Program-made: the position numbers and the translations under genes
Sequence record: MT782071.1
Source: Escherichia phage JN02
DNA length: 64,000 nucleotides
Strand: one strand, 5' to 3'
Shown here: positions 3,229-45,075 of the stretch, one piece after another
Layout: each line of letters starts with the position of its first letter
Numbering within the stretch: position 1 is the first letter of the stretch
The notes under the pieces: model-generated
Told to the model about the DNA's origin: nothing
What the model saw: only the letters and a program-made list of their open reading frames with translations
Database searches by the model: none

Positions 3229-3915
3229 TTAGAAGTCGTGAGTAGAATCGGCTTCCATCGCAATAACATAACTTACTTGAGAGCTTTCAAACTTGGCTGC
3301 AACTTTATCACCAGCTCCCCACAACATTACTTTATAGTTACCTGGCTGGATTTTCATATTAGCCATATTGATTACGAAGTTAAAATTGTTAGAACCATCA
3401 TAATCGGTAAGAGTCAAAGAATACTTAGGACGAGTTAATCCAGAATCTTCAACTTTATTGTAGCCATTGATAACAATTTTACCATCTTTATTTGTAATAG
3501 CAATTGTATCAATTTGAAGACCACGTGAAACTCGAAGCAATTGTTGAAGGTCTTCAGCTTTAATTTCAGTAATCACGGAAGCCACTGGGAATTGAATTGG
3601 CTTATTAGGAAAAACAATGGTGCTCTTGTCAGCGGCAGGCCAATAAACTGTGGAACGTGTATCTGCAATTTTAATATTGCCATCGGTGTGCATTGAAATT
3701 TCAGCATCATCAGACACTAGACTCAAAATGCTTAAGAAGCTATTCAAATCATAAAGTGCTACGTCAAAATCAATTTCATCAGAGATATTTGCTTCCGCAT
3801 AAGTGGTGCCATTAACTGCACGAGTCATAATAAATTTACCTTGACTCAGCAGAATGCCGGAGTTAATAGAGGCAAAGTTTTTCAGAATAGCGATAGTATC
3901 TTTAGACAGTTTCAT
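3229..3915 (-). CDS. 45: Sliding clamp gp45
   Basis: Track ORF 3229..3930; from M6 reads MKLSKDTIAILKNFASINSGI..., matching the T4 gp45 N-terminus; 228 aa. Confidence 0.92.
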   Translation of the reverse strand: MKLSKDTIAILKNFASINSGILLSQGKFIMTRAVNGTTYAEANISDEIDFDVALYDLNSFLSILSLVSDDAEISMHTDGNIKIADTRSTVYWPAADKSTIVFPNKPIQFPVASVITEIKAEDLQQLLRVSRGLQIDTIAITNKDGKIVINGYNKVEDSGLTRPKYSLTLTDYDGSNNFNFVINMANMKIQPGNYKVMLWGAGDKVAAKFESSQVSYVIAMEADSTHDF

Positions 3916-31490: not shown

Positions 31491-31662
31491 ATTATTTCTC
31501 TTAAGGTTTGGGCCATTCCGTGGCACATGTTATGTCCTTCGACTCGCTATGTAAACCCATTACCGCATTGCGCTCGACCTTATTACAGGTTGGAAAAGGT
31601 ACATCACTCAGAGGACTCGACGTTCATGAGGAGAGGTTGCGTTTCCCTTTATTAGGCAAGAA

Positions 31663-31992
31663 TTATACTCTAGGCTTTTGAGCTTGTTTGGTATTGGATT
31701 CCCATGCGGCTTTGGTAATTTTGTTAGCGGCATAACCAAAGGCATTAGATAGAACACCTTTAGAGTTGAATACATCCAATCCAATAAGTACACCGGCTGT
31801 GTTAAATTTAGGAGCAAAGTACGCATTAGTTTTAGAAAGAGCTTTTTTCAATTCAGGGTCTTGAACCAAGCCATCAAAAATGCCTTTACTATTTACTTTA
31901 TATGTTACTTTGGGATTTTTACCTTCTTCGATAGCAGCTTTCTGTTCCGCAGATAATGTAACTTCAGTGATAAACTCTTGATATGTTTTCAT
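31663..31992 (-). CDS. Internal protein (capsid-targeted), 109 aa
   Basis: N-terminus MKTYQEFITE matches the T4 internal-protein capsid-targeting sequence (MKTYQEFIAE). Confidence 0.7.
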   Translation of the reverse strand: MKTYQEFITEVTLSAEQKAAIEEGKNPKVTYKVNSKGIFDGLVQDPELKKALSKTNAYFAPKFNTAGVLIGLDVFNSKGVLSNAFGYAANKITKAAWESNTKQAQKPRV

Positions 31993-32017
31993 TTTGTTCC
32001 TATTGTTTTAATTTATG

Positions 32018-32332
32018 TTATTCTTTAGGGAAGTTTTTAGAGTATGCATCATAAAGTTTATTACCAATACGGCGGAAGACTTTAGCTGCAAAACGGTTTT
32101 CAGGGTTTTTAATCATGATTTGCATCATGTAAGTTCCTGCATCCGAAAGAGCTTCTTCATAGTACCCGTTAATTTCTTTAAGAGTCCTACGTTTACCACC
32201 AGGACCATCAACAGTAATTTTCCATTTACCTGTAGAAGTGCGGCTCGGTGGCTCAACTTGTTCAATCCAAATATAACCACCTTCAACGCGTTGGTTGGCG
32301 GATTCTGCAATAAATTCTTTATACGTTTTCAT
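32018..32332 (-). CDS. Internal protein (capsid-targeted), 104 aa
   Basis: N-terminus MKTYKEFIAE; own early promoter upstream. Confidence 0.7.
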   Translation of the reverse strand: MKTYKEFIAESANQRVEGGYIWIEQVEPPSRTSTGKWKITVDGPGGKRRTLKEINGYYEEALSDAGTYMMQIMIKNPENRFAAKVFRRIGNKLYDAYSKNFPKE

Positions 32333-32362
32333 TTTTGTTTCCTTGTTTGTTTTGATAGAGTA

Positions 32363-32392
32363 ATTATACCATATTAATACTTAAGCGTAAAC
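32363..32392 (-). promoter_or_regulatory. T4-type early promoter
   Basis: Minus strand GTTTAC, 17 nt, TATAAT; upstream of the internal-protein gene ATG at 32332. Confidence 0.6.
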
Positions 32393-32395
32393 AAT

Positions 32396-32656
32396 TTAAG
32401 CTTTACCGCCAGAAATAATTCCGAAGTTGTTAAAATCGTATCCAATATCGTCAACATCTACTTTAGGGCTTGCTACAACATAAGCAATTTCACTACGTTT
32501 TGCATAGGTGTTGATTTCTTTACCATCGCCACCTAAGAAAAAATACCCATTACGTTTTAATGAGCCAAAGTCTTCCGCATCACCAATGAAAGCTTTAACT
32601 TTAAATTTAGGACCTTTGGCATCTGCTTCAGCGATAAATTCTTGATACATTTTCAT
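32396..32656 (-). CDS. Internal protein (capsid-targeted), 86 aa
   Basis: N-terminus MKMYQEFIAE. Confidence 0.7.
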   Translation of the reverse strand: MKMYQEFIAEADAKGPKFKVKAFIGDAEDFGSLKRNGYFFLGGDGKEINTYAKRSEIAYVVASPKVDVDDIGYDFNNFGIISGGKA

Positions 32657-32662
32657 TTTTCC

Positions 32663-33076
32663 TTAGTAAATTGATTTACCATAGTATTTGTACCAAGTAG
32701 GACGTTGAGCAATTTTTTCATCTAAGCGAGCTTGACTTATCGCAATGGATGCTTCGGACGGGACATAATTATTACGAAATTCTGCAGGGATGTCGGAAAT
32801 ATCCTGGACAGTCGTGTCCTTGATTTTGAAACCACGTTTCACGCATTCAGCGATTAGCTCGATTTGACGTAAACGTAAAAATTCGAGTTTGTCGTAAAAG
32901 AATGTTACGTGACCTGTGCCTAAGATAAATGTTGGAGAGATTTTAAAATCCTTTACACGTTTACCGTTTTGAACATGTTTACGGACTGCACCAAATACGC
33001 GTGGTAATTCACGATACTCAGCCATAAGATGTTGGTCGGTCAGTTCAGAAACAAGTGTTAAATTGATACGAGTCAT
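32663..33076 (-). CDS. denV: Endonuclease V (pyrimidine-dimer DNA glycosylase) DenV
   Basis: Track ORF 32663..33088; from M5 reads [34 protein letters not shown]...[14 protein letters not shown], about 88 percent identical to T4 DenV as recalled. Confidence 0.93.
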
Positions 33077-33134
33077 AATTTCCTCCAAGTAGTTGATGAA
33101 TGTATAGTATCAAAGTCCTTGGAGGAAGTAAACA

Positions 33135-33416
33135 CTATTTTTCTGAAGCTCCTGAAATATATTTTTCAAGACGTTGTTTCATCAGCGAGCCGTTCTTAGC
33201 GATTTCTTCCGGTTTATCGCACATACGTAACAAGGCTTCAAGCTTAGCGATATCGCTGGTACGTTCAAATTTGCGAGTATCTATCTTACTAGCAAGTTCA
33301 GAAATACGTGCTAATAGACTTTCGGCTTCAACCAAAGCTGCACCTAGCTTAGTTGCAAATGTGTCAGTAGCTTCGTTAAGAATAGATTCTGATAAAAATT
33401 CACTATATGTTTTCAT
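33135..33416 (-). CDS. Internal protein (capsid-targeted), 93 aa
   Basis: Track ORF 33135..33431; from M6 reads [11 protein letters not shown]...; abuts the stop of e. Confidence 0.65.
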
Positions 33417-33901
33417 ATATACGCTTTCCAAGTTCCTGTTTTAAATGTTGAGATTACGCGTTTCGCGCGATTAGGTGTCTGACGATACCATTTAGATTGG
33501 GCTAGATTTACTGCCGCTTCATCCCAACGTTTCTGTTGAAGCATACGAAGAGAATTAGTAAAACCAGCGACGCCTGCTACACCCATTTGGAAGACCATAT
33601 TGACCAATGCACATCGACGAACAGCATCTAAAGAATCATATACCGGTTTAAGTTTAGCATTACCTAAGATTCCGCGAACGGCTTTATCAACGTCTTCATT
33701 AAATAGCTTTTCAGCCTCATCAAGGGTAATTGTACCGTTGCATTTACGGCCGATCATTCTGTCAAGTTCAGCTTTAGCTACGGCTAAAGACGGGTTCTTT
33801 GTTACTAAATGGCCTATGCCAATCGTCCAAAAGCCTTCAGTGTCTTTGTATAAAGTCAGTCTAAGACCTTCGTCATTACGAAGCATTTCAAATATATTCA
33901 T
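33413..33901 (-). CDS. e: Endolysin (T4 lysozyme)
   Basis: Track ORF 33413..33913; from M5 reads [32 protein letters not shown]..., about 85 percent identical to T4 lysozyme; catalytic E11/D20/T26 context conserved. Confidence 0.95.
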
Positions 33902-44787: not shown

Positions 44788-45075
44788 TTACAGAAGAGTT
44801 TTTGCAATAATTTTAAGCTGAGCTACAGAAATATGCTTAGCTTTAAACAGTGCAGTCTCTTCAGCAGGAGAGATAACAATAGTAGCGCCATCTTTCTTAG
44901 CAGACCATCCATCCCCTAAGTAAACAGTACCTTTTACTTCTTCGCCGTCAACCAGACTAATCATTGGTTTACCCTCACGTCCTTTATTTGCTTTAATAAC
45001 TTCGGAAGTAAGGGTTGCTTCGGTCAGAGTAGAAACGTTAGCATCAGGTGATATAAATTCTTTATAGGTTTTCAT
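44788..45075 (-). CDS. Internal protein (ipI position), 95 aa
   Basis: N-terminus MKTYKEFISPD...STLTEATLTSE (CTS-like); lies next to 57B as ipI does in T4. Confidence 0.6.
   Translation of the reverse strand: MKTYKEFISPDANVSTLTEATLTSEVIKANKGREGKPMISLVDGEEVKGTVYLGDGWSAKKDGATIVISPAEETALFKAKHISVAQLKIIAKTLL

Follow-up and report, generated by a model that had tools for sequence, protein, structure and literature searches.

What do the four short open reading frames (ORFs) around the denV gene of Escherichia phage JN02 encode, and what might their products do in an infected cell? The ORFs lie between positions 31,663 and 33,416 of a 64,000-nucleotide stretch of the phage genome (MT782071.1), referred to as the window throughout, and an initial annotation, made from the letters and their translations, had taken them for internal protein (IP, or Ip) genes of the kind found in phage T4. 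A 3-kb stretch around the ORFs has matches in 843 phage records, the best being Escherichia phage GADS24 (99.2%) and other members of Mosigvirus, and RB69 is 98.0% identical to the window at the locus; by these matches, the window is Mosigvirus DNA of the RB69-like type. The four ORFs are homologs of RB69ORF123c, 124c, 125c, and 127c, and are called ORF123c, ORF124c, ORF125c, and ORF127c below (Table 1). With considerable confidence, we read them as genes for small T4-type Ip precursors that would be packaged by means of a shared leader, cleaved by gp21, and injected, each mature protein blocking one type IV restriction enzyme. The class is already known and is not a new kind of system: judged by their homologs, ORF127c belongs to the Ip5 family and ORF124c to the Ip10 family, and ORF123c lacks an Ip name.

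The evidence begins with the leader. A six-frame translation of the window contains the strict motif MK[TM]Y.EF[IL].E exactly four times, and none of 100 shuffles contains it, which bears out the earlier observation that these four ORFs share an MK..EF N-terminus. In each of them, no in-frame Met lies between the upstream stop and the leader methionine; for ORF127c, which also fits the motif, the ATG at 33416 was taken as the start, as annotated in RB69 and GADS24, whereas the ORF lister runs on to an upstream TTG. The other three leaders read MKTYQEFITE (ORF123c, from 31992), MKTYKEFIAE (ORF124c, from 32332), and MKMYQEFIAE (ORF125c, from 32656). In T4 IPIII, the first ten residues are enough for encapsidation, positions 4 and 7 being required for targeting and positions 8 and 10 for processing (PMC9026906, section 2.6, citing Mullaney & Black 1996), and gp21 cuts after Glu in short [I/L]-x-E motifs (PMC9026906). 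The targeting determinants Tyr4 and Phe7 are kept in all four ORFs, and a gp21-type [Ile/Leu]-x-Glu site stands at positions 8–10 of each (ITE, IAE, IAE, and LSE in ORF123c, ORF124c, ORF125c, and ORF127c, respectively). With Tyr4, Phe7, Ile/Leu8, and Glu10 all in place, the initial equation of this leader with the T4 capsid-targeting sequence and its protease site holds at the level of sequence. ORF127c has a second site, LNE at positions 13–15, which aligns with the ITE/S site of Ip5 (a slash marks a predicted or known cleavage site here and below). Distant homologs of every body family keep the leader in other genera, down to 32% identity in the body. By this residue pattern all four products carry a T4-type capsid targeting sequence, and the four genes probably encode proteins that are injected with the DNA.

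The proteins that follow the leader were then assigned individually. In ORF127c, the leader is followed by /SILNE/ATD..., giving a predicted mature protein of ~78–83 residues with an isoelectric point (pI) of 6.3 in its 83-residue form. It matches PHROG 3499, 'internal head protein' (E = 2e-46), and aligns over 84 residues with Ip5 of phage RB15 at 48% identity (E = 2e-23); RB15 Ip5 is the same protein as Bas37_0261, and the match places ORF127c in the Ip5 family. The RB15 sequence comes from GenBank Z35082 ('DNA for Ip5, Ip9, Ip7, Ip8', locus 57B to tRNA.4), a record that we take to be that of Repoila et al. 1994; the same protein is called 'ipV' in Yersinia phage PST. The mature part of ORF124c, which begins SANQRVEGG..., would comprise 94 residues with a pI of 9.6, and the protein is 71–72% identical over its full length (E = 2e-51) to 'Ip10' of Shigella phage SP18, which assigns it to the Ip10 family. 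The SP18 record describes its protein as 'similar to Ip10 of Bacteriophage Pol', and copies of ORF124c that are 96–98% identical are found in several Tequatrovirus genomes.

ORF125c (MKMYQEFIAE/ADAKGPK...; mature form of 76 residues, pI 6.4) matches PHROG 2667, 'internal head protein' (5e-20), carries the same label in RefSeq, and represents an IP family without an Ip name. It is 77% identical to gp123 of SP18, which also starts MKTYQEFITE, and its family is present in 217 phage records, with two copies in some. ORF123c (MKTYQEFITE/VTLSAEQ...; mature form of 99 residues, pI 9.7) has the narrowest family: it occurs in 76 records at >95% identity (Mosigvirus) and in a further 13 records at <60%, those examined being of the Dhakavirus type. 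These Dhakavirus-type relatives are 32–39% identical, also follow denV, and also start MKTYQEFITE. When 1.84 billion representatives were searched exhaustively with HMMER, only two real full-length relatives came up. The family is annotated as 'hypothetical' in nearly all records listed, and no naming as an Ip was found among them.

Table 1. Positions of the features discussed, numbered from the first nucleotide of the window.
Feature	Position	Strand	Remarks
ORF127c homolog	33135-33416	-	93-residue precursor; Ip5 family
ORF125c homolog	32396-32656	-	86-residue precursor; PHROG 2667
ORF124c homolog	32018-32332	-	104-residue precursor; Ip10 family
ORF123c homolog	31663-31992	-	109-residue precursor; not named as Ip
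Leader-coding 32-nt direct repeat, four copies	31961-31992, 32301-32332, 32625-32656, 33385-33416	-	75-84% identical to reference copy
denV (endonuclease V)	32663-33076	-	Pfam Pyr_excise 2.5e-14; PHROG 1183 2e-62; RB69 annotation; context, not an IP
Gene e (lysozyme)	33413-33901	-	upstream of ORF127c
Sigma-70/T4-early-type promoter match, TTTACG-17-TGnTATAAT	32363-32391	-	directly upstream of ORF124c; 10 of 12 positions plus extended TG; consensus match only
Mosaic block, ~1.55 kb	32010-33570		3' part of e, ORF127c, denV, ORF125c, ORF124c; 92-100% identical to Tequatrovirus vB_EcoM-UFV13 (KU867876)
IPI ortholog, MKTYKEFISPDANVSTLTE/ATLTSE...	44788-45075	-	second Ip locus, 57B to trna.4; PHROG 4363 'internal virion protein', 6e-48
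208-residue ORF, MYTFNEFLAE/TEVITE/AG...	41758-42384	-	leader-like N-terminus; PHROG 2280 'unknown function'
Exact T4 late-promoter box, TATAAATA	42420-42427	-	36 nt upstream of the 208-residue ORF

Beyond the leader, the four bodies are unrelated, as had been supposed from the start. When the first 10 residues were removed, BLASTP gave no matches among the four bodies or to T4 IPI, IPII, and IPIII, and tblastn of the four bodies against the two T4 Ip loci revealed no similarity; these searches carry out the comparison of the mature parts with IPI, IPII, and IPIII that the initial annotation had recommended. An apparent kinship of ORF123c and ORF124c (PHROG 3966; hhalign probability of 83%) was rejected as an artifact of the leader, since the comparison without it gives E = 0.65, a score also reached by 80 of 100 column shuffles. 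PHROG 3966 itself merges two unrelated bodies, apparently via the shared 10-residue leader, and calls for caution in family-based annotation. Among solved structures and in Pfam, only chance-level matches were obtained for ORF124c (filamin and CsgH, E ~0.1), and nothing was obtained for ORF123c.

If T4 is taken as the guide, the leader would bind the scaffolding core during prohead assembly, gp21 would cut after Glu10 (and in ORF127c possibly also after Glu15, as in Ip5 and IPI), and the mature proteins of 99, 94, 76, and ~80 residues would remain inside the capsid and be delivered into the cell together with the DNA. In RB69 (98% identical across the locus), the genes for gp67, gp68, gp21, gp22, and gp23 are found at 105–109 kb; this region lies outside the 64-kb window, so RB69 serves as a proxy only. 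T4 Ip1, Ip2, and Ip3 each inhibit one GmrSD variant, and the authors of that work propose the same for all proteins of 'the two Ip loci' (PMC12373910), while the leader-bearing protein Bas37_0260 inhibits McrBC (HIDEN-SEQ preprint, 2025). Mosigvirus DNA, which contains arabinosylated 5-hydroxy-dC, is cut by the GmrSD-family enzyme BrxU (PMC13390438). By analogy with the four characterized members, each mature protein of the window would most likely bind and block one specific type IV enzyme (GmrSD/BrxU- or McrBC-like) that would otherwise cut the arabinosylated Mosigvirus DNA on entry. The initial annotation had put these divergent IPs forward as candidate anti-defense effectors. This agrees with the literature, in which the idea of injected anti-defense effectors is backed by experiment and by a published hypothesis (PMC12373910; 10.1101/2025.11.20.689424), but the novelty was overestimated, given that members of the Ip5 and Ip10 families are present and that ORF125c and ORF127c had already been labeled: all four are hypothetical in the original RB69 record, RefSeq has changed this to 'internal head protein' for 125c and 127c, and the GADS24 annotation applies this term to the 127c homolog only.

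Before function is weighed, it should be asked whether the shared N-terminus is a targeting peptide at all, and whether the genes are intact. At the nucleotide level, the leaders are encoded by a 32-nt direct repeat (Table 1) that is the sole DNA similarity of the four genes to T4 ipII and ipIII. Its A-rich start is well conserved, with AAA, TAT, GAA, and TTT nearly invariant, and it is found at gene-swap junctions, as would be expected of a translation-initiation region or recombination module. However, in a codon comparison of 19 leader-bearing genes from the window, T4, RB69, RB15, SP18, and AnYang, differences at codon positions 1, 2, and 3 amounted to 0.16, 0.07, and 0.31 in leader codons 2–10, and to 0.67, 0.64, and 0.64 in codons 11–20. 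In the leader, position 3 is thus 2–4 times as variable as positions 1 and 2, and synonymous codons are used for Thr, Ile, and Ala. In the 30-nt upstream regions of the four window genes, 61% of positions differ, and the one common feature is an AGGA/AAGGA of the Shine-Dalgarno (SD) type, which is present in three of the four genes. Because most changes in the leader fall on the third position of a codon and the upstream regions have diverged, selection acts on the peptide; this comparison speaks against the conserved translation-initiation region that the initial annotation had raised as an alternative. The codon bias is that expected of a 37% GC genome, and experiments in T4 show that the leader peptide itself carries foreign proteins into the head (PMC9026906). 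A recombination role could exist alongside targeting but could not take its place. We therefore regard a nucleotide-level element in place of a targeting peptide as very improbable. Equally hard to sustain is the view that the ORFs are genes in decay, or duplicates without function that still bear an ancestral leader. Frameshifted copies of three of the genes do exist. In the RB69 reference (AY303349), a −1/+1 indel pair scrambles leader residues 5–11 of ORF127c to give MKTYMNFYQN (3459–3533 of the stretch compared; window 33357–33431), and a +1 insertion truncates ORF124c (2110–2215 of the stretch compared; window 32010–32110); the ORF125c homolog in UFV13 (2185–2437 of the KU867876 stretch compared) is frameshifted and annotated as two ORFs, and several database clusters of this family are also truncated. 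Against this stand intact copies in 76 to several hundred genomes, clear ribosome-binding sites in three of the four genes (the fourth, ORF127c, starts in overlap with the e stop codon), and low ratios of non-synonymous to synonymous change (pN/pS). Unlike the RB69 reference, the window and GADS24 have an intact ORF127c leader and an intact ORF124c. The pN/pS was 0.03–0.14 for ORF127c (11 synonymous and 1 non-synonymous change compared with RB69) and 0–0.09 for ORF124c (10.3 synonymous and 3.7 non-synonymous changes compared with UFV13); for ORF125c and ORF123c, it was 0.26–0.51, with too few changes to say much. The counts for ORF127c and ORF124c point to purifying selection, and by these measures the four genes are real and maintained.

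With the leader and the genes accepted, two other functions compete with type IV inhibition. The proteins could be packaged via the leader and yet act mainly as generic DNA-associated head fillers that neutralize charge or aid packaging and ejection. This would apply most to ORF123c and ORF124c, whose mature pI of 9.6–9.7 equals that of T4 IPII and IPIII, and ~1000 IP molecules are present in each T4 head, with lysines contacting DNA phosphates (PMC3012670). However, the equally basic T4 Ip2 and Ip3 are specific GmrSD inhibitors (PMC12373910), ORF125c and ORF127c are not basic (pI 6.3–6.4), and the swapping of unrelated bodies between close relatives fits an arms race better; head filling as the main role is, in our judgment, quite unlikely. 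Alternatively, the proteins could be injected anti-defense effectors whose targets are other early-acting systems or host functions. No body is similar to the characterized inhibitors (Ip1–3 and Bas37_0260) beyond the leader, and targets are known for only four family members, all of them from Tequatrovirus. All four characterized leader-bearing proteins nevertheless hit type IV restriction enzymes, and Mosigvirus DNA is hypermodified and a BrxU substrate, and we consider such other targets unlikely overall. Besides the lack of resemblance to characterized inhibitors, several points weigh against type IV inhibition by packaged proteins. The pI of mature ORF123c and ORF124c also fits generic DNA binding. 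AlphaFold2 models of ORF124c and ORF123c, for which the very narrow families yielded alignments of three sequences only, had predicted local distance difference test scores of 47.9 and 52.1, respectively, and are too poor to use. A virion proteome of RB69-like phages, which would bear on packaging, cleavage, and injection, was not found in the literature, and the virion study of UFV13 identified four gel bands only. Inside the cluster there is no exact late promoter TATAAATA, one-mismatch late boxes occur at or below chance frequency, and the site that best fits a promoter consensus is an early-type one. Finally, the RB69 lesions in ORF127c and ORF124c may be mistakes in the 2003 sequence, or may have arisen by decay in the laboratory, where the genes would be dispensable.

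The arrangement of the genes is consistent with the variability of this locus in related phages. On the transcribed strand, the order in the window is nudE, e, ORF127c, denV, ORF125c, ORF124c, ORF123c, and vs.8, compared with nudE, e, ipIII, ipII, denV, and vs.8 in T4, where denV directly abuts vs.8. The gene order thus supports the initial description, in which T4 has ipII and ipIII between denV and e and the window has one IP gene there, with denV placed between ORF127c and ORF125c and three IP genes downstream of it. Other Tevenvirinae genera also have IP genes downstream of denV, and the arrangement is not special to JN02. The contents of the Ip locus differ between T4, SP18, AnYang, UFV13, and this window, with genes present in some and absent from others. 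The G+C-richer gap between ORF123c and vs.8 (31491–31662) was considered as a possible RNA gene and rejected (no Rfam hit; fold z-score of +1.6). It represents the decayed 5' part of vs.8, in which out-of-frame remnants of the T4 vs.8 N-terminus can be recognized (QPVIRSS in one frame and MCHGMAQT in another), and vs.8 in the window begins at an internal Met (MRTFLTG...).

A sliding identity profile and BLASTN comparison with the Tequatrovirus phage UFV13 defined a mosaic block that covers most of the cluster (Table 1). The flanks of the block are 60–85% identical to UFV13, with nudE and most of e at 60–80%, and the near-identity of the block beside these diverged flanks implies a recent exchange between genera. 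To the left of the block, identity becomes random just past the leader of the next gene and returns to 87–92% in vs.8; the slot of this next gene is occupied by IPIII in UFV13 and by ORF123c in the window. The leader itself was considered as the crossover point in the UFV13 comparison and rejected, since the near-identical stretch does not extend past the ORF124c stop and the intergenic region, 5 of the 30 leader positions are mismatched between the two phages, and the junction falls at a gene boundary. In comparisons with T4, SP18, and AnYang, different Ip genes share only 30–70 nt of DNA, comprising the ribosome-binding site and the leader. In RB15 and Bas37, the Ip5 body occupies the ipI locus; in the window, it occupies the e–denV locus. 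An exchangeable palette of Ip genes is a long-standing idea (PMC4122927), and it fits the swapping observed here. The set thus appears to be such a shuffled palette, in which unrelated bodies on one leader have moved from phage to phage and from one Ip locus to the other.

With respect to expression, the start of ORF127c overlaps the stop of e as ATGA, and the SD sequence of ORF125c (AAGGA) lies 6 nt past the denV stop. No minus-strand terminator-like site was found within the cluster, and together with the coupling to e this makes late read-through from e into the cluster plausible. Early synthesis is known for some T4 Ip genes, and ORF124c and ORF123c may also be made early, via the promoter match directly upstream of ORF124c. 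This site fits the T4/PST early consensus TTTACW-N17-TAYWAT (PMC4122927).

Among known systems, T4 IPI, IPII, and IPIII (Ip1–3) are the closest in kind. They share the N-terminal targeting sequence and the gp21 site with the window proteins, ipII and ipIII occupy the e–denV locus, and all are small and non-essential and differ from one related phage to the next. By contrast, the mature bodies have no detectable similarity, and T4 has two genes between e and denV where the window has one there and three past denV. The targets of T4 Ip1–3 are known GmrSD variants, whereas for the window set type IV targets are predicted by analogy. RB15 Ip5 resembles ORF127c in its helical character and in a conserved EIAKNGS motif, but it is encoded in the ipI locus (57B to trna.4), unlike ORF127c, which sits in the e–denV interval with coupling to e; the leader of Ip5 is of the longer IPI type (MKTFKEFATKTTITE/), and ORF127c by contrast carries sites at both E10 and E15. 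In a separate data set on Ip5, transposon insertions in bas37_0261 (MZ501089, 664–921 of the stretch compared) appear ~4-fold depleted on uropathogenic CFT073 compared with K-12 (log2FC −2.09, q ~0; HIDEN-SEQ supplementary file 8, sheet Data S3), where the host comparison is inferred from row position, polarity from neighboring genes is possible, and the authors do not discuss the value. Ip10 of phage 'Pol' and of Shigella phage SP18 (Gaprivervirus) has the same leader and the same place downstream of denV, and ORF124c is its ortholog or allele. Bas37_0260 likewise combines the leader with an otherwise unique small body in an Ip locus; it differs in its body, which resembles none of the four, and in its demonstrated target. 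More remotely, the ejection proteins of the giant phages phiKZ and SPN3US and the Dar proteins of phage P1 are also head-internal and delivered with the DNA, and the gp21-like protease of the giant phages cuts after Glu. However, these proteins are much larger, have other targeting motifs (A-x-E or S-x-E), and belong to unrelated phage lineages.

A relaxed leader pattern identified exactly two further ORFs in the window, starting at 45075 and 42384. The former encodes an IPI ortholog that is 88% identical to T4 IPI and 99% identical to RB69 ipI. The interval from 57B to trna.4 has this one gene in the window, compared with two in RB69 (ipI and the Ip7-like, leader-bearing RB69p156). As in RB69, only two tRNAs are present in the window, tRNA-Arg(UCU) and tRNA-Met(CAU), at 43125–43201 and 43208–43281 on the minus strand, compared with eight in the T4 region. 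The second ORF, of 208 residues, follows its leader-like N-terminus with a P/A/K-rich linker and a conserved C-terminal domain, and its family, PHROG 2280, is annotated as 'hypothetical' in every record examined. Homologs from four other genera, including types Dhakavirus, Tegunavirus, and Karamvirus, all keep the leader pattern, the second [IL][TS]E/A site, the linker, and the C-terminal domain, and all four have an exact TATAAATA 25–35 nt upstream, after a hairpin. The 208-residue protein may be an unrecognized internal head protein and is the best such candidate here. Tentatively, and with somewhat more doubt than conviction, the window could be taken to encode six, not four, head-targeted proteins, with ORF123c (Mosigvirus and Dhakavirus-type phages) and the late PHROG 2280 family (at least five Tevenvirinae genera) as new IP families, the whole forming an arsenal against defenses that recognize arabinosyl-5-hydroxycytosine DNA, and the ~1.55-kb block moving as a unit.

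Collectively, these findings extend known biology incrementally and introduce no new principle. All leader-bearing T-even proteins characterized by 2025 (Ip1, Ip2, Ip3, and Bas37_0260) are specific inhibitors of type IV restriction. The DNA hypermodification of Mosigvirus differs, yet GmrSD-family enzymes still cut this DNA. The four genes, together with the IPI ortholog and the 208-residue candidate, provide a short list for new inhibitor–nuclease pairs, and the same list may help to explain the host range of therapeutic RB69-like phages.

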